Assembly (NCBI GenBank): GCA_003135555.1
Contig: PLCF01000026.1
Coordinates: 22,328 to 42,685 of the forward strand
Direction of reading: 5' to 3'
From: Vulcanimicrobiota bacterium
Lineage (GTDB): Bacteria > Vulcanimicrobiota > Vulcanimicrobiia > Vulcanimicrobiales > Vulcanimicrobiaceae
Length of the DNA stretch: 20,358 nt
Notes under the pieces: model-generated
Database searches by the model: none
Told to the model about the DNA's origin: nothing
What the model saw: the letters and a program-made list of their open reading frames with translations, nothing else
Shown: positions 2,811-16,283 of the stretch, one piece after another
Numbering within the stretch: position 1 is the stretch's first letter
Layout: every line of letters begins with the position of its first letter
Position numbers and translations under genes: made by a program

Positions 2811-2897
2811 AGTACACCTCCCCGGAATGTAAGCGAGGCCTGCCCTTCGCGCGCGCGACAACAGGAAACCTTGCGGCGCCTCCGCGAGATAGCGGGG

Positions 2898-5555
2898 ATG
2901 CATCCCAATCCCGAGCGCGAGCGCATCGAGGCTGCGACGCGGCACGAAGCGCATTGGCGGCGTTGGGGTCCGTACCTGAGCGACCGCCAATGGGGTACGG
3001 TTCGCGAAGACTACAGCGCCGACGGGAACGCCTGGGACTACTTTCCCTTCGAGATGGCGCGGCTGCGCGCATATCGCTGGGGCGAGGACGGCATCCTCGG
3101 CATCTGCGACAACCACCAGCGGCTGTGCTTCGCGCCCGCGTTCTGGAACGAGCGCGACGAGATCATCAAAGAACGCTTCTACGGACTGGGCGGCCATCAG
3201 GGCAACCATGGCGAGGACGTCAAGGAGTATTGGTGGTACGTCGACGCCGTCCCGTCGCACGCATACCTCAAGGCCGTGTACCGCTATCCGCAGGCGGCCT
3301 TTCCCTACCGCGAGCTGCGCGAGCAAAACGCGGCGCGCGGGCGCGGCGAGCGCGAGTACGAGCTGGTCGACACCGGCATCTTCGCGGACGACGCCTACTT
3401 CGACATCACCGTCGAGTACGCCAAGCGCGACGTCGACGACATCCTGGTGCGCATCACTGCGACGAATCGCGGCCGGCAGAGCGCACCGCTGCACGTGCTG
3501 CCGCAGCTGTGGTTTCGCAACGAATGGTCCTGGAAGTGCGGGACACCGCGCGCCCGCATCCACGACGCCGTAGCCGGCGGCCGGGCCCTGATCGCCGAGC
3601 ACGCCACGCTGGGCAAACGCTGGATCGTCAGCGACGGCGGCGCGCAGGAGACGTTGTTCACCGAGAACGACACCGACTTCGAGCGCGCCTTCGGCGTCCC
3701 GTCACCGTCGCGGTTCGTGAAGAGCGGGATCGATCGCGCCGTGCGCGGAGAAGACCGCGACGGCATCAATCCGGCGCGCGCCGGTTCCAAAGCGGCGCTG
3801 CATTACCATTGGACCATCGAACCCGGCGCGACGCGTACCGTGCGTCTGCGCATCAGCGACCTGCCCGATGCCGGCGGCGTCGATGCGGAGTTCGACGCGA
3901 CCTTCGATCGCCGCGCCGAGGAAGCCGATCGCTTCTACGCGGCGCTCGCGCCCGCGCAACTCGACGCTGAGTCGGCGGCGATCCAGCGCAGCGCGTTCGC
4001 CGGGATGATCTGGTCCAAGCAGTTCTACAACTACGTCGTGCGGGATTGGCTGCTCGGCGACGAGCTCACGCCGCCGCCGCCCGCGGTGCGCAAGCACGGC
4101 CGCAACGCGAACTGGCTGCACCTCTACAACGACGGCGTGCTGTCGATGCCCGACACCTGGGAGTACCCGTGGTATGCGGCGTGGGACCTCGCTTTTCACG
4201 TCATCCCGTTCGGCCTGATCGATCCGGACTTCGCCAAACGGCAGCTCACGCTGCTCACGCGCGAATGGTTCATGCATCCCAGCGGACAGCTCCCGGCGTA
4301 CGAGTGGGCCTTCGACGACGTCAACCCGCCGGTACACGCCTGGGCCGCGCTACGGCTGTACAAGATCGAGGCCAAGCGCAACGGCGGCGTGGGCGACTTT
4401 CGCTTTCTCGAGCGCGCGTTCCAGAAGCTGCTGATGAACTTCACCTGGTGGGTGAACCGCAAGGACGTCGCCGGCCGCAACGTGTTCCAGGGCGGGTTCC
4501 TGGGGCTCGACAACGTCGGCCCCTTTGACCGCGGCCAGTCGCTCCCCGACGGTGCGTACCTCGCGCAGAGCGACGGCACGTCGTGGATGGCGGTCTACGC
4601 GCTCAACATGCTGGCGATCGCGATCGAGCTGGCCAAGCACGACGAAGACTACGCCGATGTCGCTTCGAAGTTCTTCGAGCACTTTCTCATCATCGCCGAC
4701 GCCATGAACTCCGAACGCGACGACGAGCCGGGGCTCTGGGACCCTGAGGACGAGTTCTACTACGACCAGGTGTACCTGCGCAACGGTGAGCGCATCCCGG
4801 TCAAGGTGCGCAGCGTCGTCGGCATCGTGCCGATCTTCGCGGTCGAGACGCTCGGCGCGCTGACGCTCGACGCGATGCCGGGCTTCAAGAAGCGCGTCGA
4901 GTGGTTTCTCGACAACCGCCCCGAGCTCGCCGAGAACGTCGCGCGCATCGACGTCGGCGGCCAGCTCGACCGGCGCCTGATGGCGATCTGCAACCCGGAC
5001 CGGTTGCGCAGCATCCTGCGGCGGGTCTTCGACGAGGACGAGTTTCTCTCGCCGCACGGGGTACGGATGCTCTCGCGCTATCACCGCGATCATCCCTACG
5101 TGCTCAAGCTCGGCGGTGAGGAGTTCCGCTGCGACTACGAACCGGCCGAGTCCAGCAGCGGGCTCTTCGGCGGGAACTCCAACTGGCGCGGCCCGGTGTG
5201 GATGCCCTTGAACTTCTTGCTGATCGAGGCGCTGCAGAAGTTCCACCACTACCTGGGCGACGAGTACACGATCGAGTTCCCGACCCGTTCGGGCCGCATG
5301 TTGACGCTGTGGCAGATCTCGCTCGAGCTTGCGGACCGGCTCGTCGGGTTGTTCCGGCGCGGCGCCGACGGTCGCCGCCCGTTCAACGGCGCGGTCGAGC
5401 TGTTCCAGACCGATGCGAATTGGCGCGACCGGCTGCTGTTCCACGAATACTTCAACGGCGATACCGGCGAAGGACTCGGCGCGTCGCATCAAACCGGCTG
5501 GACGGGCCTCGTCGCCAAGCTCATCGACCAACTCGCCGCCTACCGAGACAGGTGA
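2898..5555 (+). CDS. MGH1-like / GH63-related glycoside hydrolase (glucosidase)
   Basis: Family motifs WRRWGPYLSDRQWGTVREDYS, EYPWYAAWDLAFH, NSNWRGPVW and FHEYFNGDTGEGLGASHQTGWT. ATG at 2898 is preferred over TTG at 2871. Confidence 0.9.
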   Translation: MHPNPERERIEAATRHEAHWRRWGPYLSDRQWGTVREDYSADGNAWDYFPFEMARLRAYRWGEDGILGICDNHQRLCFAPAFWNERDEIIKERFYGLGGHQGNHGEDVKEYWWYVDAVPSHAYLKAVYRYPQAAFPYRELREQNAARGRGEREYELVDTGIFADDAYFDITVEYAKRDVDDILVRITATNRGRQSAPLHVLPQLWFRNEWSWKCGTPRARIHDAVAGGRALIAEHATLGKRWIVSDGGAQETLFTENDTDFERAFGVPSPSRFVKSGIDRAVRGEDRDGINPARAGSKAALHYHWTIEPGATRTVRLRISDLPDAGGVDAEFDATFDRRAEEADRFYAALAPAQLDAESAAIQRSAFAGMIWSKQFYNYVVRDWLLGDELTPPPPAVRKHGRNANWLHLYNDGVLSMPDTWEYPWYAAWDLAFHVIPFGLIDPDFAKRQLTLLTREWFMHPSGQLPAYEWAFDDVNPPVHAWAALRLYKIEAKRNGGVGDFRFLERAFQKLLMNFTWWVNRKDVAGRNVFQGGFLGLDNVGPFDRGQSLPDGAYLAQSDGTSWMAVYALNMLAIAIELAKHDEDYADVASKFFEHFLIIADAMNSERDDEPGLWDPEDEFYYDQVYLRNGERIPVKVRSVVGIVPIFAVETLGALTLDAMPGFKKRVEWFLDNRPELAENVARIDVGGQLDRRLMAICNPDRLRSILRRVFDEDEFLSPHGVRMLSRYHRDHPYVLKLGGEEFRCDYEPAESSSGLFGGNSNWRGPVWMPLNFLLIEALQKFHHYLGDEYTIEFPTRSGRMLTLWQISLELADRLVGLFRRGADGRRPFNGAVELFQTDANWRDRLLFHEYFNGDTGEGLGASHQTGWTGLVAKLIDQLAAYRDR

Positions 5556-5627: not shown

Positions 5628-5657
5628 TTGACCGTGCGATTCTCCCGTTGGTAGGAT
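5628..5657 (+). promoter_or_regulatory. Sigma70-type promoter with extended -10
   Basis: TTGACC (5628-5633), 18 nt, TAGGAT (5652-5657), preceded by TGn. The -10 ends 7 nt before ATG 5665. Confidence 0.6.
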
Positions 5658-5664
5658 AGCCACG

Positions 5665-5856
5665 ATGGTCCCGAAGAACTCTCAGATTGCGAATGAGGCA
5701 TTCGTCCTCTACGTTCAGGCGACGGGCATCGAAGCGATTGAGAGAGAGATCGAAGCCTCGAATGGGCCGATAACGCGCGCCGAGGAAGCCGAAGCTGATC
5801 GTCGCTTGGAGGATGCACGACGCCGCGCAAAACAGCGTCAAAAGCAGCGGCGCTAG
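5665..5856 (+). CDS. 63-aa hypothetical protein resembling the C-terminal half of CopG/RHH-type antitoxins
   Basis: Fills the intergenic gap and has its own promoter. The helical charged sequence NEAFVLYVQ..IEREIEASNGPITRAEEAEADRRL recalls the E..E...GP.T.EE...A motif; this resemblance is from memory and was not searched. Confidence 0.55.
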   Translation: MVPKNSQIANEAFVLYVQATGIEAIEREIEASNGPITRAEEAEADRRLEDARRRAKQRQKQRR

Positions 5857-5964: not shown

Positions 5965-7311
5965 ATGCGGTACGATCTCGCGGTCATCGGGTCCGGGCAG
6001 GGTGGGGTTCCGCTCGCGCTGGATTTCGCCGAGCGCGGGAAGCGCGTGGTGCTGTTCGAGCGCGGGGATCTGGGCGGCTGCTGCGTCAACGTCGGCTGCA
6101 CGCCGTCCAAAGCGTTTCTGGCGTCCGCGCACGCCGCGGGACGGGCCCGCCGCGCGAGCGACGTGCACGTGCACTGCGAGGTGCGCGTCGACGTCCCCGC
6201 GGTCATGGAACGCGTGCGCCGGCTCGTCGGGGAGTGGCGCGACGGCGTCGAAAAGAAGCTCGCCAAGAGCGCCGTCGAGCTGGTACGCGCCGAGGCGTCG
6301 TTCGATGCGCCGCATCTTCTGCGTGCCGGCGGCGAAACGTATGAGGCCGAAACCGTCGTCCTCGATACCGGCGGACGCGCCAACGTCCCACCGCTGCCGG
6401 GACTGGCCGGCACGCCCTACCTCACCAACGAGAACTTCTTCCTCCAAGAGACGCTGCCGCAGCGTCTGATCGTGCTGGGCTCGGGCTACATTGGTCTCGA
6501 GCTGGGACAAGGCGCCGCGCGCTTGGGGAGCCGGGTTACCATCGTCACGCCCGACGACCGGCTCATCGCACGCGAAGAGTCCGACGTGTGCGGCGTGCTG
6601 AGTGCATCCTTCACGCGCGACGGCATCGAGATTCGGCTCGAGCGCAAGGGCAAAGAGGTCGCCTACGACGGCACGACGTTCACCGTCACCCTCGATGACG
6701 GCACGGCGCTTACCGGCGACGGACTGCTCGTCGCGATCGGCCGCCGTCCCAACGTACCCGACGGCACCGCGGAGCGAGCCGGGATCGCGCTCGACGAGCA
6801 CGGCTTCGTGCGCTGCGACGAGCATTTGCAGACCTCCGTCGCCGGCCACTACGCGCTGGGAGACGTGGCCGGCCAGCCGCAGTTCACGCACGTGTCGTGG
6901 GAAGACTTCCGGCGTTTGAAGACCGTGATCGGCGGCGACGCGTCGCGCACGCGCGACGACCGCGTGCTGGCCTATGCCATGTACACCGAGCCGCAAGTCG
7001 GACGCGTCGGTCTGAGCACCGATCAAGCGCGCCAGCAGGGCCTCGCGCACCGCGTCGTCACGCTGCCGCTCGCGCAGGTCGCGCGCGGGGCCGAATGGGG
7101 GCTCGAAGACGGATTCTTCCGCCTGGTCGTCGATCCGCGCAGCGACGCGATCCTGGGCGCGACGTTCGCCGGATACGAAGCCGGGGAATTGATCCATGTG
7201 ATCCTCGCCCACATGGAAGCCGGCTCGACGTGGCGCGTTCTCGAGCGCTCCGTCCACATCCACCCCACCTTCGCCGAGGGGCTGCCTACGCTCGCACGGC
7301 AGCTGTTATGA
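5965..7311 (+). CDS. Class-I pyridine nucleotide-disulfide oxidoreductase (MerA-like/RclA-like group, not true MerA)
   Basis: FAD-binding GSGQGG, redox disulfide CVNVGCTPSK, NAD(P)H-binding GSGYIGLE, C-terminal HIHPTFAE. No NmerA domain and no C-terminal CC pair. Confidence 0.9.
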   Translation: MRYDLAVIGSGQGGVPLALDFAERGKRVVLFERGDLGGCCVNVGCTPSKAFLASAHAAGRARRASDVHVHCEVRVDVPAVMERVRRLVGEWRDGVEKKLAKSAVELVRAEASFDAPHLLRAGGETYEAETVVLDTGGRANVPPLPGLAGTPYLTNENFFLQETLPQRLIVLGSGYIGLELGQGAARLGSRVTIVTPDDRLIAREESDVCGVLSASFTRDGIEIRLERKGKEVAYDGTTFTVTLDDGTALTGDGLLVAIGRRPNVPDGTAERAGIALDEHGFVRCDEHLQTSVAGHYALGDVAGQPQFTHVSWEDFRRLKTVIGGDASRTRDDRVLAYAMYTEPQVGRVGLSTDQARQQGLAHRVVTLPLAQVARGAEWGLEDGFFRLVVDPRSDAILGATFAGYEAGELIHVILAHMEAGSTWRVLERSVHIHPTFAEGLPTLARQLL

Positions 7312-7331
7312 CGGGGTCACGCTGCGCGTGA
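7308..7331 (+). repeat. Single 20-nt junction unit forming mini-ORF MTGSRCA*
   Basis: ATGACGGGGTCACGCTGCGC (7308-7327) followed by GTGA. Its ATG overlaps the oxidoreductase TGA and its TGA overlaps the glgB GTG. It is 18/20 identical to the unit at 9516. Confidence 0.85.
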
Positions 7332-9499
7332 TCCCGGCCGAACGGCTCGCAGCGATCGAGTCGGCCCGCGAAGGCGACCCGTTCGCCATTTTGGGTCCGC
7401 ACGCGCTGGGGACCGGAACGGTGGTGCGCGCCTTCATCCCCGACGCGCAGCGCGTCGCCGTGGTGGACGCCCGCGGAGGGGTCCTCGCGCAGGGCGAGCG
7501 CGTGGGAACCGCCGGATTCTTCGAAGCGTTCGTCGCCGAGCTCCCGCGACGGTATCGCCTGCGCGTCGAGTCCGCGGGCGGGACGCGCACCATCGACGAT
7601 CCGTACCGCTTCGGCCCACTTCTCGGCGAGCTCGACGTCTGGCTGTTCGCGCAGGGCAATCACCTCGATCTCTACCGCGTGCTCGGCGCGCACGTCGACC
7701 AGATCGACGGTGTGGCCGGTACGCGCTTCGCGGTATGGGCGCCCAACGCGACGCGCGTGAGCGCCGTCGGCGACTGGAACGCGTGGGACGGTCGCGTCCA
7801 CGCCATGCGCCTACGCCGCGAGGTGGGCGTGTGGGAGCTGTTCATCCCCGCGGTCGGCCCCGGTGCGCGCTACAAGTTCGAGCTGCTCGGGCCGCACGGA
7901 AACCTGCTGCCGCTGCGCGCCGATCCGTTTGCGTTCGCGAGCGAGCGGCGGCCGGGCAACGCCTCGGTGGTCACCGCACCGCCGGCGCACGCCTGGAACG
8001 ACGAGGCGTGGATGGCCGTGCGCGCCGCGAAGCAGCGGCGCGACGCGCCGATCCACATCTACGAGGTGCACCTCGGCTCGTGGAAGCGCGTCCCCGAAGA
8101 AAACGATCGTTTTCTGACCTACGGCGAGTTGGCCGCGCAGCTGATCCCCTACGTCGCCGACCTCGGCTTCACGCACATCGAGTTGTTGCCCGTCACCGAG
8201 CATCCGTTCGACTTGAGCTGGGGGTATCAGACGACGGGCTGGTTCGCGCCGACGAGCCGCTTCGGCGGCCCCGACGATTTTCGCGCCTTCGTCGACGCGG
8301 CCCATGCCGCGGGGATCGGCGTCATCCTCGATTGGATCCCCGGGCACTTCCCGACCGACGCGCACTCGCTGGGCAACTTCGACGGCACGCCATTGTACGA
8401 GCATGCCGACGCGCGCGAAGGCTTTCATCGCGAGTGGGGGACGTACGTCTTCAACCTGGGCCGGATCGAAGTGGCGAACTTTCTCGTCGCGTCGGCGCTG
8501 TACTGGCTGCGCGAGTTCCATATCGACGGCTTGCGCGTCGATGCGGTCGCTTCGATCTTGTACCGTGACTACTCGCGCAAAGAAGGCGAGTGGATCCCCA
8601 ACAAGTACGGCGGGCGCGAGAACCTCGAAGCGGTGGCGTTCTTGCAGCGTCTCAACGCGACGGCCTACGGCGAGGTGCCAGGGATCGCGACCTTCGCCGA
8701 AGAGTCGACCGCGTGGCCGGGCGTAACGGCGCCCACCGACGTCGGCGGGCTGGGCTTCGGCTACAAGTGGAACATGGGCTGGATGCACGACACGCTGCGG
8801 TTCCTCGAGCGCGATCCGCTCTTCCGCGGCCACCATCTCAACGAGATCTCGTTCGGGTTGATCTACGCCTTCAGCGAGAACTTCGTGCTGCCGCTCTCGC
8901 ACGACGAAGTCGTGCACGGAAAGCGGTCGCTGCTGGGCCGCATGCCGGGCGCCGAATACCAGCAGTTCGCCAGCCTGCGACTGCTCTACGCGCTAATGTG
9001 GGCGCATCCCGGAAAGAAGCTGCTCTTTGCCGGCGGAGAGTTCGCGCAACGCGGCGAGTGGCGGGCCGAGGCGTCGTTGGACTGGCACCTGCTGCACGGC
9101 CGTCATCGCGGCGTGCAGCAGCTCGTCAAGGATCTCAACCGGCTGGGGCGCGCGCACGGTGCGCTGCACGAGCGCGACTGCGAACCGGCCGGGTTCGAGT
9201 GGATCGCCTACGACGACGCCCGCAACGGCGTGGCTTCGTTCATTCGATGGGACGCGGCGCGCGACGGGCACGTCGTGTGCGTGTGCAACTTCAGCGGCGC
9301 GCGCCACGACGGCTACCTGCTGGGCGTTCCGCGCAGCGGCTCCTACGTCGAGCTGCTCAACACCGACGCCGAAGCGTACGGCGGGTCGAACTTGGGTAAC
9401 CGGGGTTCCGTAACGGCAACCGATCGCGCCGCGCACGGACGCCCGTACTCGGTATCCGTGACGCTGCCGCCTCTTTCGACGCTCTGGCTGACGCCATGA
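7328..9499 (+). CDS. glgB: 1,4-alpha-glucan branching enzyme (GH13_9)
   Basis: FAVWAPNA, IYEVHLGSW, SWGYQ, and catalytic motifs DGLRVDAV, AEEST and LSHDEVVHGK. Confidence 0.97.
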   Translation: MIPAERLAAIESAREGDPFAILGPHALGTGTVVRAFIPDAQRVAVVDARGGVLAQGERVGTAGFFEAFVAELPRRYRLRVESAGGTRTIDDPYRFGPLLGELDVWLFAQGNHLDLYRVLGAHVDQIDGVAGTRFAVWAPNATRVSAVGDWNAWDGRVHAMRLRREVGVWELFIPAVGPGARYKFELLGPHGNLLPLRADPFAFASERRPGNASVVTAPPAHAWNDEAWMAVRAAKQRRDAPIHIYEVHLGSWKRVPEENDRFLTYGELAAQLIPYVADLGFTHIELLPVTEHPFDLSWGYQTTGWFAPTSRFGGPDDFRAFVDAAHAAGIGVILDWIPGHFPTDAHSLGNFDGTPLYEHADAREGFHREWGTYVFNLGRIEVANFLVASALYWLREFHIDGLRVDAVASILYRDYSRKEGEWIPNKYGGRENLEAVAFLQRLNATAYGEVPGIATFAEESTAWPGVTAPTDVGGLGFGYKWNMGWMHDTLRFLERDPLFRGHHLNEISFGLIYAFSENFVLPLSHDEVVHGKRSLLGRMPGAEYQQFASLRLLYALMWAHPGKKLLFAGGEFAQRGEWRAEASLDWHLLHGRHRGVQQLVKDLNRLGRAHGALHERDCEPAGFEWIAYDDARNGVASFIRWDAARDGHVVCVCNFSGARHDGYLLGVPRSGSYVELLNTDAEAYGGSNLGNRGSVTATDRAAHGRPYSVSVTLPPLSTLWLTP

Positions 9500-9559
9500 C
9501 GGAGTCATGCTGCGCATGACGGAGTCACGGTGCGCATGACGGAGTCACGGTGCGCGTGA
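9496..9559 (+). repeat. Three tandem 20-nt units forming chained mini-ORFs MTESCCA*, MTESRCA*, MTESRCA*
   Basis: 9496 ATGACGGAGTCATGCTGCGC; 9516 and 9536 ATGACGGAGTCACGGTGCGC; then GTGA at 9556-9559. Confidence 0.95.
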
Positions 9560-11634
9560 TCGCGGTGCGGCCGCGCGTCGAGGCGGGGCTGCCGTACCCG
9601 CTCGGCGCGACCTGGGATGGAACCGGCGTGAACTTCGCGCTCTTCAGCGCCAACGCGGAGAAGGTCGAGCTGTGCGCGTTCGATCCGCGCGGACGCCGCG
9701 AGATCGCGCGCATCGTGCTGCCCGAGTACACCGACGAGGTGTGGCACGGTTATCTGCCCGAGGCCCGCCCCGGGATGCTGTACGGCTACCGCGTCTACGG
9801 TCCGTACGACCCGGAACGCGGCCACCGCTTCAACCACCACAAGCTGTTGCTCGACCCGTATGCCAAAGCGTTCGCCGGGAAGCTGCGCTGGACCGACGCG
9901 CACTACGGCTATCGCATCGGCGCGCACCGCGAGGACCTCTCGTTCGACCGGCGCGACAATGCCAGCGCGATGCCGAAGTGCGTGGTGCTCGAGAGCGCGT
10001 TCACCTGGGGTGAGGATCATCGCCCGCCGGTGCCCTGGACCGACACGGTGATCTACGAACTGCACGTAAAGGGGTTCACCGTCGGCCACCCCGGCGTCGC
10101 GCCGGCGCTGCGCGGCACCTTCACCGGATTGGCCGCGCCGGCCGTGGTCGGGTATCTCAAGGAACTGGGCGTGACCACGCTCGAGCTGTTGCCGGTGCAG
10201 GCGTTCGTCGACGACCGCCGGCTGATCGAACGCAAGCTGCGCAACTACTGGGGCTACAACTCGATCGGCTACTTCGCCCCTGAGCAGCGCTACCTCCAGA
10301 ACGATCCCAGCGAGTTCAAGACGATGGTCAAGCACCTGCACGAAGCCGGGATCGAGATCGTGCTCGACGTCGTGTACAACCACACCGCGGAAGGGAATCA
10401 ACTCGGTCCGACATTCTCGTTCAAGGGGATCGACAACGCCTCGTACTACCGCCTCGCCGACGACCGCCGCTACTACGACGACGTCACCGGTACCGGAAAC
10501 ACCCTCGATCTGCGCCATCCGCGCGTGTTGCAGCTCGTGATGGACTCGCTGCGCTACTGGGCCGAGGAGATGCACGTCGACGGGTTCCGCTTCGATCTCG
10601 CGCCGGCGCTGGCGCGCGAGGACGGCGGTTACCGGCGCGACGCGGCGCTTTTCAAGGCGATCCAGCAAGACCCGGTGCTGTCGCGTCTCAAGATGATCGC
10701 CGAACCCTGGGACGTCGGGCCGAGCGGCTATCAAGTCGGCAACTTTCCGCCCGGCTGGTCGGAGTGGAACGGCAAGTACCGCGATACGGTGCGGCGTTTC
10801 TGGAAAGGCGATCTGGGCACGCTGCCCGAGCTGGCCTCGCGCCTGGCCGGCTCGTCCGATCTGTTCGCGCACAACGGCCGGCGCCCGCGCGCCAGCGTGA
10901 ACTTCGTTACCGTCCACGACGGCTTCACGCTCAACGACCTCGTCTCGTACAACCACAAGCACAACGAAGCCAACCACGAGGACAATTACGACGGCGCCAA
11001 CGACAACGAAAGTTGGAACTGCGGGGTCGAAGGGCCGACGACCGATTCGGCGATCATCGACTTGCGCGAGCGCCAGAAGCGCAACTTCATCGCTACCCTG
11101 ATGCTGTCGTTGGGGGTTCCGATGATCGCCGCGGGCGACGAGCACGGGCGCTCGCAGCGCGGCAACAACAACGCGTACTGCCAAGACAACGAGATCTCGT
11201 GGCTCGACTGGAGCTCCGCGAACCCGCGCGACCTCGCGCTGGCCGAGTTCGTCAAGCTGATGCTGCGGCTGCGGCGCGAGCACCCCGCGTTCAAGCGCGA
11301 CGCGTTCTACCGCGGCGCGCCGGTCGAGCCCGGCGGCCCCAAGGACATCGCTTGGATGGGTCCCGACGGCTACGAGATGGGCACAGAGGACTGGACGCCC
11401 GACCGCCGCACGATCGGCCTCTACCTGGGCGCTCGGCCGATGCTCTTGGTCGCCATGAACGCCGCGCCCGACGACGTCGGGTTCGCCCTGCCCGACGTCG
11501 AGCGCGTCTCGTGGTCGCTCGTGCTCGACACCGCGATCGAGGGCGGGGCGCCGCGCAACGTCCCGCGCGACGTCGTCGTCATCTATCCGATGGTCTCGCA
11601 CTCGCTCGCGCTTTTCGCAGGGAGCGTCCGGTGA
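9556..11634 (+). CDS. glgX: Glycogen debranching enzyme / isoamylase (GH13_11)
   Basis: PYPLGATWDG, NYWGYN, DVVYNHT, DGFRFDLA, IAEPWD, HDGFTL. GTG at 9556 is chosen because it overlaps the last mini-ORF stop and mirrors the glgB junction; the track start at 9550 lies inside the repeat. Confidence 0.96.
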   Translation: MIAVRPRVEAGLPYPLGATWDGTGVNFALFSANAEKVELCAFDPRGRREIARIVLPEYTDEVWHGYLPEARPGMLYGYRVYGPYDPERGHRFNHHKLLLDPYAKAFAGKLRWTDAHYGYRIGAHREDLSFDRRDNASAMPKCVVLESAFTWGEDHRPPVPWTDTVIYELHVKGFTVGHPGVAPALRGTFTGLAAPAVVGYLKELGVTTLELLPVQAFVDDRRLIERKLRNYWGYNSIGYFAPEQRYLQNDPSEFKTMVKHLHEAGIEIVLDVVYNHTAEGNQLGPTFSFKGIDNASYYRLADDRRYYDDVTGTGNTLDLRHPRVLQLVMDSLRYWAEEMHVDGFRFDLAPALAREDGGYRRDAALFKAIQQDPVLSRLKMIAEPWDVGPSGYQVGNFPPGWSEWNGKYRDTVRRFWKGDLGTLPELASRLAGSSDLFAHNGRRPRASVNFVTVHDGFTLNDLVSYNHKHNEANHEDNYDGANDNESWNCGVEGPTTDSAIIDLRERQKRNFIATLMLSLGVPMIAAGDEHGRSQRGNNNAYCQDNEISWLDWSSANPRDLALAEFVKLMLRLRREHPAFKRDAFYRGAPVEPGGPKDIAWMGPDGYEMGTEDWTPDRRTIGLYLGARPMLLVAMNAAPDDVGFALPDVERVSWSLVLDTAIEGGAPRNVPRDVVVIYPMVSHSLALFAGSVR

Positions 11635-13637
11635 GCGCCAGTGTCGCGCGTTCGTACGTCGACGCACTCGGTACCGAGCGGCTCGCGCCGCCGCAAACCG
11701 TGGCACAGTTCGAGGAGCTCGTCGCGGAAGAGCCGCATCATTTCGTCGCGCCGGCGCTGGTGTTGCGTGCCGGCGAAATGCTGAGCCTGGACGTGACGCT
11801 GCCGGCGATGAGCTGGACCGAGCCCTTGCAATGGGCGCTCGTGCGTGAGGACGGCAGCACCGAGGACGGCGTCGTGGCGTTGCGCGACGCGCCGGTGCTC
11901 GCCGCCGACCACCGGCCGGCGTCGACCTACGACACGCGCCGCATCGCGATCGCCGGACCGCAGCCGCTCGGCACCCACCAGCTTTCGCTCACGGTCGACG
12001 CGTATGCTCGCGCCCTGGTGCGCGTCCTCGTGGTCCCCGAGCGCGCGCACCAACCGCGCGGACGCGTTTGGGGGATCGCGCTGCAGCTCTATGCGCTGCG
12101 CTCCGCTCGCAATCACGGCATCGGCGATTTCGCCGACCTGCGCGCGGTGTGCCGGTTGCTGGGCGAGCGCGGCGCCAGCTACGTCGGGATCAATCCCTTG
12201 CACGCGACCTTCCGCGGCGATCCGGAGTCGGCGAGCCCGTACGCGGCCTCGTCGCGGCGCTGGCTGAACTGGCTCTACATCGCCGTCGACGAGGTGCCCG
12301 AGCACGCCGGCGCCGCCGCTCGCGCCGATGCGTTCGACCCCTTGTGCGCGGCCGATCACGTCGCCTATGCCGGCGTCGCGGCCGCCAAGGACGAGCTGTT
12401 GCGCGGGTGTTTCGCAGCCCTCGCCGGCGACGCTGCGCGGGCCGCGGCATTCGCCGCCTGGTGCGACGAGCAAGGCGAACCGTTGCGGCGCTTCGCGGTT
12501 TTCGAAGCGCTCGTCGCGCGCTTCGGCCGCGAGCTGAGTACCTGGCCGCAGGCATTCGCCGGGCCGGACTCACCCGACGTCGCACTGTTCGGCGCGGCCG
12601 AAGAGTCCGAGGTGCGCTACTCGATGTACCTGCAATGGCTCGCGGCCGAGCAGCTCGCCGCGGTTAGCGCGGACGCGGCGCGCTGCGGCGTACGGCTCTA
12701 TCGCGACCTCGCCGTCGGCGTCGACCCCAACTCCGCCGACGTCTGGGCCGACGCGGGGGCATACCTCCCGCACGTCTCGGTCGGCGCGCCGCCCGACCTG
12801 CTCAACACGCTGGGCCAGGACTGGGGGCTTCCCCCGCTCGATCCGCGCGGGTTGGCGCGGGAAGGCTACGCCGAGCTGCTCGCGATCATGCAGTCCAACT
12901 GCCGCAACGCCGGCGCACTGCGCATCGATCACGCCTTCTCGTTGGCCCGGCTGTACTGGATTCCGCGCGGCGCCGACCCCCGCAGCGGAACCTACGTGAC
13001 GTATCCGCTCGACGACCTGTGCGGCGTTGTCGCGTTGGCCAGCGTGCGCGAAGGCTGCGTCGTGATCGGCGAGGATCTCGGCACGCTGCCGGAGGGGTTC
13101 CGGGAGCGCATGGAAGCGGTCGGGATCCTGTCGTACCGCATCTTGTTCTTCGAGCGCCGCGCCGACGGCGCGTTCGTCCCGCCCGAGGAGTACCCAGCCC
13201 TCGCGCTAGCCGCATCAGGGACGCACGACCTGCCGACGATCTCCGCCTGGCTGCGGGGCGAGGACGTCGAGCTGCGCGACCGCTTGGGCCTGCTCGAGAC
13301 GCCGCTGGATGCCGACAAAGACGCGCGCGCGCGCGACCGCACGGCGCTGCTCGATGTGCTCGTCGCGCACGGCGACCTCGCCCCGGACGAGCTCGACGAC
13401 GACACGGCCGTGGTCGTGGCGGCGAACCGCTACCTCGCCGCGACACCGTGCGCGATCGTGATGGCGCAACTCGACGACATCCTGGTCGAACGAGCCCCCG
13501 TCAACGTCCCGGGAACCTCCACGCAGTACCCGAATTGGCGTCGAAAGCTGAGCACGCCCATCGAGGCCCTCGCCTCCGACGACCGCCTCGCCCGCCTCTG
13601 CGATGCCCTACAGCAGCTACGCCCGCGTGAAAACTAA
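11631..13637 (+). CDS. malQ: 4-alpha-glucanotransferase / amylomaltase (GH77)
   Basis: GIGDFADL, SPY, GAPPD..GQDWGLPP, and catalytic motifs LRIDH, GEDLG and THD. The start GTG overlaps the glgX TGA (GTGA 11631-11634); the track extension to 10764 is an off-frame shadow of glgX. Confidence 0.95.
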   Translation: MSASVARSYVDALGTERLAPPQTVAQFEELVAEEPHHFVAPALVLRAGEMLSLDVTLPAMSWTEPLQWALVREDGSTEDGVVALRDAPVLAADHRPASTYDTRRIAIAGPQPLGTHQLSLTVDAYARALVRVLVVPERAHQPRGRVWGIALQLYALRSARNHGIGDFADLRAVCRLLGERGASYVGINPLHATFRGDPESASPYAASSRRWLNWLYIAVDEVPEHAGAAARADAFDPLCAADHVAYAGVAAAKDELLRGCFAALAGDAARAAAFAAWCDEQGEPLRRFAVFEALVARFGRELSTWPQAFAGPDSPDVALFGAAEESEVRYSMYLQWLAAEQLAAVSADAARCGVRLYRDLAVGVDPNSADVWADAGAYLPHVSVGAPPDLLNTLGQDWGLPPLDPRGLAREGYAELLAIMQSNCRNAGALRIDHAFSLARLYWIPRGADPRSGTYVTYPLDDLCGVVALASVREGCVVIGEDLGTLPEGFRERMEAVGILSYRILFFERRADGAFVPPEEYPALALAASGTHDLPTISAWLRGEDVELRDRLGLLETPLDADKDARARDRTALLDVLVAHGDLAPDELDDDTAVVVAANRYLAATPCAIVMAQLDDILVERAPVNVPGTSTQYPNWRRKLSTPIEALASDDRLARLCDALQQLRPREN

Positions 13638-13638
13638 C

Positions 13639-13776
13639 ATGAAGGCAGAAAGCACCATGATGTTACGCGCGCCCACGGGGAATCTCGACCGTATCGCAAC
13701 CGCGAGCGCGCGCACGTCGGGGGGCCCCACGCGCAGCGTGGGGGGCGCGGAGCGGAGCGCAGCGCCGTCAAAATGA
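13639..13776 (+). other. 134-nt MIRU-like intergenic insert flanked by ATGA, carrying a 45-codon ORF
   Basis: ATG 13639 (1 nt after the malQ TAA) reads MKAESTMMLRAPTGNLDRIATASARTSGGPTRSVGGAERSAAPSK to TGA 13774-13776, which overlaps the next ATG at 13773. Internal hairpin CCCCACGC-gca-GCGTGGGG at 13725-13743. Confidence 0.6.
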
Positions 13777-16283
13777 AAGCTGTATTGATGGCTGGGGGCG
13801 AGGGCTCCCGGCTTCGGCCACTGACCTCGCGACGGCCGAAGCCGCTGGCGCCGGTCGCCGGCAAACCGATCATGGAGTTGATCGTCGAGCTGCTGCACAA
13901 GCATGGGTTGCGCGAGGTCGTGGCGACGCTGCACTACCTCGCCGACGAGATCGAGGCCTATTTCGGCGACGGGAGCGCGCACGGGGTGACGATGCACTAC
14001 GTCGTCGAGGACACCCCGCTGGGAACCGCGGGCGCGGTCAAGATGGCGCACGACCTGCTGATCGGCGAAACGTTCCTGGTCATCAGCGGGGACGCGCTGA
14101 CCAACCTCGATCTGAGCGCGGTGGTGCGGCACCACCGCGAACAGGGGAACGACGTCACCATCGCGCTGCAGCGCGTGACCAACCCGCTGGAATTCGGCGT
14201 CGTCGTAACCGACGAGTCGGGCCGCATCGTGCGGTTTCTCGAGAAACCGTCCTGGGGTGAGGTCTTCTCCGACACGATCAACACCGGGATCTACGTGCTC
14301 GAACCGTCGATCCTTGACCGGATGCAGCGCGGCAAGGTCTACGATTTCTCCAAGGACCTGTTTCCCGACATGCTGCGCGAGGGGGCCAAACTCGGCGGCT
14401 ACGTGATCGACGCCTACTGGACGGACATCGGAAACCTCGAACAGTACCAACAAGCCAACTACGACGCGATCTCGGGCTACGTCGGCATCGAGTTCCCGGG
14501 CACGCAAGTCGCCCCCGGCGTCTATGCCGGCGAGGGCACGCGGATCGATCCGGACGCGCGGATCGAGGGGCCGGTGGTGATCGGACGCGACGTCCGCATC
14601 GCAGCCGGAACGTCGATCGTGGGACCCACCGTCATCGGCGACCGCACGATCGTGGGACGCGCAGCGAACGTCTGCCGCAGCGTGCTGTGGGAGGACGTGT
14701 ACGTCGGCGAGGAGGCGTCGCTGAGCGACTGCACCGTGGCCGACCGCAACATCATCGAGAAGCGCGCCAAGGTCAACGAGAACACCGTGCTCGGTCGCGG
14801 CTGCACGATCGGCGCCGGCGCGACGGTGAACGCGCACCTCAAACTGTGGCCCGACAAGTGGGTCAGCGCGGGCTCGATCGTCTCGATGTCGCTGATCTAC
14901 GGCCAGAAATGGCCCGGCTCGCTGTTCGGGTCGGTAGGGATCAGCGGTCTGGCGAACCTGGAGATTACCCCGGAGTTCGCACTCAAGCTCGGGCAGGCGT
15001 TCGGCACGTGGCTCAAACCCGGCCAGACGGTGATGACCAGTCGCGACACGCACCCGGCGTCGCGCGTGATGAACCGCTGCGTGATCTCCGGCTTGTTGTC
15101 GGTGGGCGTCAACGTACTCGACCTGCGGTCCTATCCGCTGCCGCTGGCACGCTACGCGGTGCGCGTCGGGAGCGACGGCGGGATGCACGTGCGCATCGCT
15201 CCCGACGATCCCAACTCGATCGTCTTCGAGTTCTTCGACGGTACGGGGATCGGGATCGACAAAGGCGCCGAACGCAAGATCGAAAACCTGTTTTTCCGCG
15301 AGGACTTCCGCCGCACGCCGATGGACGAGGTCGGCCGGCTGGATTTCCCCTCGCGCGCGCTCGAGCGGTACACCGCTTCGTTCGCGCAGGCGCTGCACGC
15401 CGAAGCGATCAAGTTCGCGAACTTCCGCGTGGTGATCGACTATGCGTTCGGCAACGCGTCGATCGTGCTGCCGCAGATCCTGGGCGGACTGGGCGTCGAA
15501 CAAATCGCGCTCAACGCCTACTTCGACGCCGCCAAGGTGCGCACGTTCCACGAGGACCGCGAGCGCCATCTGCAACAGCTCACCTCGGTCGTCACCTCGC
15601 TCGAGGCGAATCTGGGCGTGCTCATCGACGCCGACGGCGAGACCGTGACGGTGGTCGACGACGCCGGCCAGATCGTGGGCCGCAACCGCCTCATGGCGCT
15701 GCTCACGCTGCTGGTCGCACGGGCGACCCCCGGTGCGCGCATCGCGATGCCGCTCACGGTGCCGACGGTGGTAGAACGCATCGCGGCCGACAACGGCGCC
15801 ACGATCGTCCGCACGCGCAGCGACCGTCGCTCGCTCATGGCGCTGGCCGAACAGGAAGGCCGCGGACTGGCGTTTGCGGGCGGGATGAACTACGAGCTGA
15901 TCTTCCCGGAGTTCCAGCCGGCGTTCGACGGCATCTACGCGACGGCCAAGATCATGGAGTTGCTCGCTGCCGAGCACCGTCCGCTCTCCGAGCTGGTCGC
16001 GATGATCCCATCCTGGCACGTCGCGGGCCGGGTCGTGCCGTGTCCGTGGGACCGCAAAGGCGCGGTGATGCGTTCGCTCCACGACGAGGCCGCCCACGGC
16101 GGCAACGGCAAAGTCGAGACGCTCGACGGAATTCGCCTCCCGCGCTCCGACGGCTGGGTGCTCGTCCTTCCCGACGCCACCGACGCGTCGGTCAACGTCT
16201 GGGCGGAAGGCAACTCCGACGACGAGGCCGCGCGCTACGCCGACGAGATCGTCGAACGCGTGCGCGCGATCGCGGCCGGTTGA
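13773..16283 (+). CDS. Mannose-1-phosphate guanylyltransferase-like nucleotidyltransferase + left-handed beta-helix + phosphoglucomutase/phosphomannomutase-like fusion
   Basis: MKAVLMAGGEGSRLRPLT..PKPL, PLGTAG, EKP and YWTDIG; hexapeptide repeats; C-terminal alpha-phosphohexomutase-like domains (LFG..GISG, VVIDYAFG, DGIRL..GWVLVLP). Confidence 0.92.
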   Translation: MKAVLMAGGEGSRLRPLTSRRPKPLAPVAGKPIMELIVELLHKHGLREVVATLHYLADEIEAYFGDGSAHGVTMHYVVEDTPLGTAGAVKMAHDLLIGETFLVISGDALTNLDLSAVVRHHREQGNDVTIALQRVTNPLEFGVVVTDESGRIVRFLEKPSWGEVFSDTINTGIYVLEPSILDRMQRGKVYDFSKDLFPDMLREGAKLGGYVIDAYWTDIGNLEQYQQANYDAISGYVGIEFPGTQVAPGVYAGEGTRIDPDARIEGPVVIGRDVRIAAGTSIVGPTVIGDRTIVGRAANVCRSVLWEDVYVGEEASLSDCTVADRNIIEKRAKVNENTVLGRGCTIGAGATVNAHLKLWPDKWVSAGSIVSMSLIYGQKWPGSLFGSVGISGLANLEITPEFALKLGQAFGTWLKPGQTVMTSRDTHPASRVMNRCVISGLLSVGVNVLDLRSYPLPLARYAVRVGSDGGMHVRIAPDDPNSIVFEFFDGTGIGIDKGAERKIENLFFREDFRRTPMDEVGRLDFPSRALERYTASFAQALHAEAIKFANFRVVIDYAFGNASIVLPQILGGLGVEQIALNAYFDAAKVRTFHEDRERHLQQLTSVVTSLEANLGVLIDADGETVTVVDDAGQIVGRNRLMALLTLLVARATPGARIAMPLTVPTVVERIAADNGATIVRTRSDRRSLMALAEQEGRGLAFAGGMNYELIFPEFQPAFDGIYATAKIMELLAAEHRPLSELVAMIPSWHVAGRVVPCPWDRKGAVMRSLHDEAAHGGNGKVETLDGIRLPRSDGWVLVLPDATDASVNVWAEGNSDDEAARYADEIVERVRAIAAG

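Follow-up and report, generated by a model that had tools for sequence, protein, structure and literature searches.

What is a tandem repeat doing exactly between the stop codon of one glycogen gene and the start codon of the next? We addressed this question for a 20,358-nt stretch of contig PLCF01000026.1 from a Vulcanimicrobiota bacterium (hereafter the window; all positions are window coordinates, on the + strand throughout), in which three 20-nt units separate glgB, the gene of 1,4-alpha-glucan branching enzyme, from glgX, the gene of glycogen debranching enzyme. The original prediction, made from the sequence of this stretch, described the units as a chain of overlapping heptapeptide open reading frames (ORFs) resembling mycobacterial interspersed repetitive units (MIRUs). 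By comparing the junction with its relatives, we conclude, with a probability of about one half, that Eremiobacterota, an uncultured soil phylum, possess in this unit a conserved intercistronic cassette, which replaces a plain NTGA overlap between neighbouring genes (an NTG start and a TGA stop sharing two bases), preserves translational coupling in a MIRU-like manner, and is expandable by slippage. The cassette itself is real, conserved, variable in copy number, located at several types of gene junctions, and low-copy.

Results and Discussion

Three overlapping heptapeptide ORFs between glgB and glgX

The junction is composed of the following features.

7328..9499, + strand: glgB, 1,4-alpha-glucan branching enzyme (Pfam; NCBIfam NF003811, 970 bits)
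9496..9555, + strand: array of three 20-nt units (Tandem Repeats Finder, pattern matches, covariance-model matches of 46-50 bits)
9496..9519, + strand: relay ORF 1, MTESCCA* (translation)
9516..9539, + strand: relay ORF 2, MTESRCA* (translation)
9536..9559, + strand: relay ORF 3, MTESRCA* (translation), whose TGA at 9557-9559 overlaps the glgX GTG at 9556
9556..11634, + strand: glgX, glycogen debranching enzyme (TIGR02100, 1012 bits), with a conserved GTGATC start at 9556

The tandem array and its three overlapping heptapeptide ORFs were confirmed by repeat finding and translation. Tandem Repeats Finder places the repeat at 9495-9559 with a period of 20, 3.2 copies, 93% matches and a score of 109, and the 20-mer with up to three mismatches matches the window four times versus 0.02 matches expected, a count reached in 0 of 100 shuffles. 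The glgB stop TGA sits inside the ATGA at 9496-9499. Unit 1 is ATGACGGAGTCATGCTGCGC (9496-9515), units 2 and 3 are both ATGACGGAGTCACGGTGCGC (9516-9535 and 9536-9555), and GTGATC comes next. Unit 1 differs from the other two at two positions, while the identity of units 2 and 3 indicates that the latest duplication in the window is recent. With head-to-tail 20-nt copies, and one versus three of them at the same junction in relatives, the array is a minisatellite. As predicted, all three window units contain the inverted repeat TGAC-GGA-GTCA, and the GGAG lies 11 nt ahead of each next start.

Because the unit is 20 nt long (3n+2) and carries ATGA, its tandem duplication yields a chain of overlapping 24-nt ORFs by arithmetic alone. 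What is non-trivial is that the NTGA ends are 20 nt apart already in the single-copy state, together with their conservation.

The window probably comes from a metagenome assembly, which raises the question of whether the three-copy array exists in the organism at all. However, a sequencing read is longer than the 60-nt array, and since unit 1 is not identical to units 2 and 3 and three units are also present at this junction in an independent assembly (L053, see below), the chance that the array is an assembly artefact is close to nil.

Every upstream stop of the chain is a TGA followed by C. The glgB frame, when read through its TGA, continues for exactly 20 extra codons and ends at the TGA at 9557-9559; a three-unit array thus closes all three frames. 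Selenocysteine insertion or readthrough at a TGA with a hairpin was considered and dropped, since the same cassette follows three unrelated genes and glgB readthrough adds only 20 codons. A second tandem repeat with a 20-nt period is found at 201-239 (1.9 copies, consensus CGGCGGCCGATCCGGGGGC, score 53) and is unrelated to the cassette.

A fourth unit upstream of glgB

The same cassette occurs as a single copy at the 5' end of glgB, where it separates this gene from a preceding oxidoreductase gene.

5965..7311, + strand: FAD/pyridine-nucleotide-disulfide oxidoreductase gene, first cistron (Pfam Pyr_redox_2, 6.8e-60, and Pyr_redox_dim)
7308..7327, + strand: single 20-nt cassette ATGACGGGGTCACGCTGCGC, which separates the oxidoreductase gene from glgB (pattern match with two mismatches)
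7308..7331, + strand: relay ORF MTGSRCA* of 7 codons (translation), with an ATG overlapping the stop TGA of the oxidoreductase gene and a TGA overlapping the glgB GTG at 7328
7312..7336, + strand: 11-bp RNA hairpin predicted with a UGC loop (-24.6 kcal/mol, z -2.42), enclosing the G-run and the glgB GTG
11631..13637, + strand: malQ, 4-alpha-glucanotransferase (Pfam Glyco_hydro_77, 1.2e-109)

The oxidoreductase gene ends in TTA plus TGA, giving ATGA, and the cassette is followed by GTGATC, which is the start of glgB, just as GTGATC follows the array. At its other end glgB has CCA as the terminal codon, which again forms ATGA with the stop. NTG starts and TGA stops share two bases at 7308-7311, 7328-7331, 9496-9499, 9516-9519, 9536-9539, 9556-9559 and 11631-11634, so that NTGA overlaps connect the oxidoreductase gene, glgB, glgX and malQ in an unbroken chain with one, three and zero cassettes at the successive junctions. 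The glgX-malQ junction, a plain GTGA overlap at 11631-11634, represents the zero-copy state. Since this junction is a plain NTGA overlap in all three genomes compared, coupling appears to be the baseline of the operon.

Homologous cassettes at three types of junctions

To describe the distribution of the cassette, a collection of species-representative genomes was scanned with the exact degenerate 19-mer TGACGGRGTCAYGSTGCGC, a pattern that recovers 10 of the 14 units known to us and to which diverged units and cassette-free operons are invisible. In six of the 104 loci obtained, a long ORF ends in the cassette TGA and is followed by an NTGA and another long ORF. All six (L001, L005, L053, L065, L080 and L088) belong to Eremiobacterota/Vulcanimicrobiota/Candidatus Elarobacter, and the flanking proteins in these assemblies are 76-87% identical to those of the window; for GlgB, the amino acid identity between the window and L001, L080 and L065 is ~80%. 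Of the 98 loci outside Eremiobacterota, 82 fall inside long open frames, where coding sequence of the DGVTLR/DGVTVR type matches by chance. Within the limits of an exact-match scan of incomplete metagenome-assembled genomes, each of the six assemblies has one exact-pattern locus. The junctions and their copy numbers are as follows.

Oxidoreductase to glgB, one copy: window, L065, L053 and L088; the spacer CGGGGTCACGCTGCGC is identical in 4 of 4 (16 of 16 bases)
Oxidoreductase to glgB, zero copies: L001 and L080; plain CTGTGATCG overlap, exactly 20 nt shorter than the filled junction
glgB to glgX, one copy: L001, L080 and L065
glgB to glgX, three copies: window and L053
glgX to malQ, zero copies: window, L001 and L080 (3 of 3); NTGA overlap
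tmk to holB, one copy: L005; thymidylate kinase and DNA polymerase III delta' genes, assigned by Pfam

In total, 14 units are present at 10 junctions of three types, and the neighbouring genes are on the same strand in all of them. Each of the 14 units measures exactly 20 nt, has NTGA at either end, and shows no variation at positions T2-G6, G9-A12 and T22-A24. When species-level genomes are compared, orthologous junctions contain 0, 1 or 3 copies. These natural states, and the retention of NTGA overlaps in every other copy, agree with the proposal that any copy number keeps the chain intact.

Kinship was judged from pairwise identities, without a rooted tree. By this measure L001 and L080 are sisters (90-95% amino acid identity), L065 and L053 are sisters (94%), and the window is about equidistant from both pairs. 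As three copies are found in two non-sister genomes and the sister of L053 has one, at least two copy-number changes are required, whichever state is ancestral. The change from one copy to none can be explained as a deletion between the flanking TGA repeats. The three units of L053 have diverged from each other and each is still 20 nt long with ATGA. In this assembly the oxidoreductase and glgB genes are fragmented by tblastn, which suggests frame errors; despite these apparent errors, the L053 array has an exact 20-nt period with every ATGA/GTGA overlap intact.

Further searches returned no additional members. Allowing up to five mismatches to the 19-mer core in the sequence gathered for the analysis, only the known units and scattered 5-mismatch matches within genes were found. 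A covariance model applied to 49,019 bases with filters off gave 12 matches at or above 44 bits, all of them known units, followed by a next best match at 15.7 bits; the middle units of both arrays overlap their neighbours and are not listed separately by this search. The array has no match in the plasmid and phage collections. The closest plasmid-borne glgB-glgX pair, from Burkholderia multivorans, is only 72% identical, and its 32-nt spacer is unrelated, so the cassette is not general to glg operons.

The presence of one cassette at three unrelated types of junctions, including 29 identical bases in common between the glgB-glgX junction of L080 and the tmk-holB junction of L005, would be expected of a selfish mobile mini-element, inserted in the manner of a MIRU into NTGA(TC) overlaps and persisting without a host function because coupling is undisturbed. 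The empty site in L001 and L080, which has TGA at both ends of the missing 20 nt, fits this explanation, and MIRUs are described as apparently mobile, inserting at start codons, in the excerpted text of a review on translational coupling (PMC12548453). On the other hand, each of the six assemblies has only one exact-pattern locus, although the pattern recovers 10 of 14 known units; no transposase or nuclease gene is found by Pfam in the 20-kb window; the plasmid and phage collections are without matches; and deletion between TGA repeats accounts for the empty site equally well. Together with the grouping of units by locus rather than by genome (see below), this makes a purely selfish origin improbable.

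Conservation of the nucleotide sequence

The units resemble their orthologues and not the other units of their own genome. The centre of the inverted repeat is GGG in 4 of 4 cases at the oxidoreductase-glgB junction, and GGA is present in 4 of 5 genomes at the glgB-glgX junction. This grouping by locus points to vertical descent under purifying selection rather than to homogenisation within genomes. The degree of constraint can be seen from the four-fold degenerate sites of the neighbouring genes, compared in protein-guided alignments: they are 59-78% identical between genomes in glgB and 60-84% identical in the 5' part of glgX, while the cassette is nearly invariant.

The codon ahead of the cassette gives a similar picture. 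It ends in A at 9 of 10 junctions (CCA six times, CTA twice and TTA once) and in G at the remaining one. In the seven window genes, third-position A has a frequency of 5.3%, and CCA accounts for 3.1% of Pro codons, CTA for 1.4% and TTA for 0.2% of Leu codons; the GC content of the window is high (64-72%). The A before the upstream TGA, supplied by rare codons, therefore indicates that the overlapping start codon is kept despite compositional bias.

The encoded peptide is variable, M-T-(E/G/R)-S-(R/C)-(C/S)-(A/P). A function of the peptide was rejected, because the differences between units mostly change the amino acid, and the suggestion that Cys-containing peptides act as sensors is not upheld, since Cys is missing in 3 of 14 units. 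What is conserved is the nucleotide sequence, the length and the NTGA ends; the amino acid sequence is not.

These data bear on the simplest explanation of the array, in which a 16-nt spacer is ancestral and neutral slippage has expanded it in the window into a three-copy minisatellite that has no function, tolerated as the overlaps persist automatically, with a copy number that has no regulatory meaning. The identical units 2 and 3, which imply a recent duplication, are consistent with slippage, as are the arithmetic origin of the relay in the 20-nt period, the single-copy state of three of the five orthologous glgB-glgX junctions, and the small size of the family (one exact-pattern locus in each of six assemblies and none further in 49 kb with the covariance model). 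Neutral slippage leaves unexplained, however, why the single unit is so conserved when the four-fold sites of glgB have diverged to 59-78% identity, and why the mutually diverged units of L053 have all kept 20 nt and ATGA. Moreover, the window and L053 are not sister taxa (L065, 94% identical to L053, has one copy), and the three-copy state has thus been either long retained or reached twice. We regard neutral slippage as a possible but unlikely explanation.

Inverted repeats and the predicted start-codon hairpin

Two overlapping palindromes can be distinguished in the cassette. The arms of TGAC-NNN-GTCA are invariant in all 14 units, with the centre being GGA in seven, GGG in five and GCG in two; the GGAG seen in the window is thus not a fixed feature, being replaced by GGGG in 5 of 14 units and by GCGG in 2 of 14. 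The second palindrome, GTCACGC-TGC-GCGTGA(Y), forms 7 bp, and its 3' arm contains both the mini-ORF's TGA and the GTG that starts the following gene. The same hairpin was predicted independently by RNAalifold from eight single-copy junctions, and its consensus, 7316-7332, is the conserved core of the longer hairpin at 7312-7336. The TGCGCA proposed as a palindrome at unit junctions does occur at the two internal ones (9511-9516 and 9531-9536), whereas the last junction, like the single-copy units, has TGCGCG. TGCGCA is therefore a by-product of the internal ATGA junctions, and the conserved palindrome is the longer one.

Across the 14 units, 94.9% of the hairpin cells are paired, and two pairs have changed on both sides, from C-G to U-A in window unit 1 and from C-G to G-C in L053 unit 2. 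A conserved start-codon hairpin is plausible from these predictions, though covariation leaves it unproven. Comparison of the window segment 7100-9800 with Rfam gave four matches, all with E of at least 2 and far under the gathering scores.

Invariant arms around a variable centre, and conservation of all 16 spacer bases beyond the requirement of the relay ORF, could also reflect a binding site for a trans-acting factor. A dimeric protein might recognise TGAC-N3-GTCA in RNA or DNA, or a CsrA-like protein the GGA loops, repressing or coordinating translation and bridging the three sites. The comparison with CsrA/RsmA sites is attractive, as the cassette places GGA in the loop of a 4-bp hairpin at 20-nt spacing within a glycogen operon, and CsrA, according to the excerpts of PMC7652899 considered here, binds GGA in the loops of short hairpins (≤4 bp), bridges sites 10-63 nt apart, and was discovered via glycogen genes. 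Yet 7 of the 14 units have no GGA, the ACA of the SELEX (systematic ligand evolution through exponential enrichment) consensus RUACARGGAUGU quoted in the same excerpts is present in 0 of 14, and the loop has 3 nt compared with the usual 6 given there. The cassette is also found at tmk-holB, a junction with no connection to carbon storage. The analysis identified no regulator gene, the presence of csrA in the phylum not having been searched for, and no literature on CsrA in Eremiobacterota was found. Taken together, a trans-factor site is distinctly improbable.

Another role for the hairpin would be that of a decay barrier or processing signal. Hairpins of the repetitive extragenic palindromic (REP) type located between cistrons protect upstream mRNA from 3' exonucleases, and the stem-loops of the cassette could in the same way raise GlgB relative to GlgX and MalQ. 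The element is intercistronic, every junction has a predicted and conserved consensus hairpin, and the array provides several alternative stems. Against this, the stem is short (7 bp) and overlaps the downstream start codon instead of lying in a free spacer, and the folding z-scores are mostly non-significant. No promoter-like or terminator-like site was detected at either cassette junction of the window; the only promoter-like site is at 5628-5657, and the single + strand terminator-like site, at 7373-7387, is within glgB. A decay barrier is accordingly very unlikely.

Proposed translational relay

From this anatomy we infer a functional role for the cassette, which would involve reinitiation, the hairpin and possibly copy number. 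NTGA (-4 nt) overlaps are described in the excerpted text of PMC12548453 as the commonest coupled architecture and the commonest prokaryotic overlap, and coupling is explained there by RNA unfolding and/or reinitiation by the same ribosome. The 5' end of the cassette is the TGA of the upstream gene after A (rarely G), giving an overlapping start codon, and its middle is TGAC-NNN-GTCA with a centre that is often similar to a Shine-Dalgarno (SD) sequence (GGA or GGG). In the proposed mechanism, a ribosome ending on the upstream TGA would reinitiate at the overlapping ATG, read seven codons through the hairpin, end on the TGA that overlaps the next start, and restart there on the next gene. The hairpin, aided by an SD sequence that is poorly spaced or absent, would block independent use of the downstream GTG. 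SD-like bases may be optional for the relay, as the last unit of L053 has GCGG. Since the unit has 3n+2 nt with NTGA at both ends, its stacking or loss by slippage or microhomology leaves the chain intact, and the three glgB-glgX units of the window would be such an expansion. Stacked units would multiply reinitiation losses, most plausibly lowering translation of glgX-malQ relative to glgB, or might be near-neutral.

Several observations weigh against this mechanism or against the conserved coupling cassette as such. The census is biased, as the scan yields only loci bearing the exact pattern. In the window, and only there, a GTG at 9550 is in frame with the GTG at 9556 and 5 nt 3' of the GGAG at 9541-9544; it could be an ordinary SD-driven glgX start, which would make the relay dispensable in the window. 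Single-copy relatives have CTG at the equivalent position, and the GlgX N-terminus encoded from 9556, VI(A/S/P)(A/V)R(P/L)RVE, is conserved in five genomes. A terminating ribosome might reach the GTG 20 nt away by scanning, leaving the mini-ORF untranslated. The A before TGA could be conserved merely as part of a copied element, and the 16 of 16 conserved spacer bases exceed the needs of a relay ORF, so that another trait, such as a binding site, may be under selection. The support for the hairpin from covariation is weak (34 of 500 column shuffles equal it, pairing fails in 5 of 98 cells, and 4 of 7 pairs show no variation), the fold z-scores of the array (-1.2), L080 (-0.34) and L005 (+0.55) are unremarkable, and the minimum-energy fold of L005 does not contain the hairpin.

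A broader form of the coupling cassette can be envisaged, in which the unit is a stackable relay maintained by selection and suited to any NTGA overlap of Eremiobacterota, the copy number sets the protein ratio of the cistrons, here glycogen branching versus debranching plus disproportionation, and the hairpin makes translation of the downstream gene strictly dependent on the relay. It would then be the smallest element of the MIRU type and a natural counterpart of bicistronic design. We put this joint reading forward as a tentative and rather doubtful extension.

Comparison with known elements

The cassette resembles MIRUs in being a short direct repeat located between co-directional genes of an operon in the orientation of the genes (all 10 junctions), and in occurring in tandem. 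The copy number of MIRUs varies between strains, and that of the cassette is 0, 1 or 3 between species-level genomes. MIRU units are ~40-100 bp long and dispersed at tens of loci per genome, whereas the cassette unit has 20 nt and occupies one to three junctions per genome in the DNA examined. The host is a member of Eremiobacterota and not Mycobacterium, and the cassette is conserved at the nucleotide level and carries a predicted start-codon hairpin. The two are likened here by architecture. The excerpts of PMC12548453, which cite Supply et al. 1997, describe MIRUs as repeats inserting at start codons and having an internal ORF coupled at -4 nt; the small ORF of the cassette likewise overlaps the neighbouring stop and start at -4 nt in 14 of 14 units, and in both cases insertion can be thought of as tolerated since coupling is preserved, as those excerpts suggest for MIRUs. 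The MIRU-like character claimed initially therefore stands as to how the element works, and not as to membership in the MIRU family, given the 20-nt unit, the other phylum and the one exact-pattern locus per assembly.

Plain NTGA coupling is shared by every junction of the chain, with or without a cassette. Unlike it, the cassette introduces one to three extra cistrons of 7 codons, and between two enzymes a ribosome would need two to four rounds of termination and reinitiation. The leader ORFs of synthetic bicistronic design use the principle mentioned in the excerpted part of PMC12548453; the cassette differs from them in being natural, only 7 codons long, stackable, and located between cistrons rather than behind a promoter.

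With REP sequences and bacterial interspersed mosaic elements (BIMEs) the cassette has in common that it is a short palindromic repeat that can sit between cistrons. REP/BIME elements are high-copy extragenic imperfect palindromes with a conserved 5' head, often arranged in inverted pairs and associated with a REP-associated tyrosine transposase (RAYT) gene. In contrast, the cassette is low-copy, always oriented with the genes and positioned precisely at stop and start codons. Neither a conserved 5' tetranucleotide head nor a RAYT gene was observed, and no transposase domain is present in the window. In the open-access papers and preprints searched, we found no described element of this kind beyond the translational-coupling review, and nothing on Eremiobacterota in connection with glycogen or repeats.

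The operon and its neighbourhood

The oxidoreductase is an odd lead gene for a glycogen operon. It is chained to glgB-glgX-malQ in the window and syntenic in L065, L053, L088, L001 and L080; its best NCBIfam matches are 'FAD-containing oxidoreductase' and MerA/Lpd-like models, every one of them below the cutoff. The gap ahead of the operon contains a 63-aa ORF (5665-5856, + strand) with a Lys/Arg/Glu-rich tail, and a sigma-70-like TTGACC-18-TAGGAT (5628-5657) ends 7 nt 5' of its ATG; this ORF may be a leaderless small gene.

Directly 3' of malQ, positions 13773-16283 encode a fusion protein of 836 aa that combines a sugar-1-phosphate nucleotidyltransferase with hexapeptide repeats and phosphoglucomutase/phosphomannomutase domains I-III and may supply activated sugar to the glucan pathway. 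Upstream of the operon lies a large gene of a GH63/mannosylglycerate-hydrolase-like glycosidase (2871-5555). L065 and L053 have one upstream as well, and the neighbourhood thus appears to be a conserved carbohydrate-storage region.

Conclusions

If the array is merely a tolerated product of slippage, its description amounts to a minor annotation note. The cassette, which occurs both with an SD-like run and lacking one and would entail from one to three reinitiations in succession, is a clean natural test case for reinitiation and RNA-unfolding models of coupling. If the relay reading is true, the unit would offer a small natural part with which to set expression ratios within operons, and its 0, 1 and 3 copies a simple genomic marker for lineages of Eremiobacterota. 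The MIRU principle would then not be solely mycobacterial: it would have emerged in an uncultured phylum unrelated to mycobacteria as well, cut down to 20 nt.

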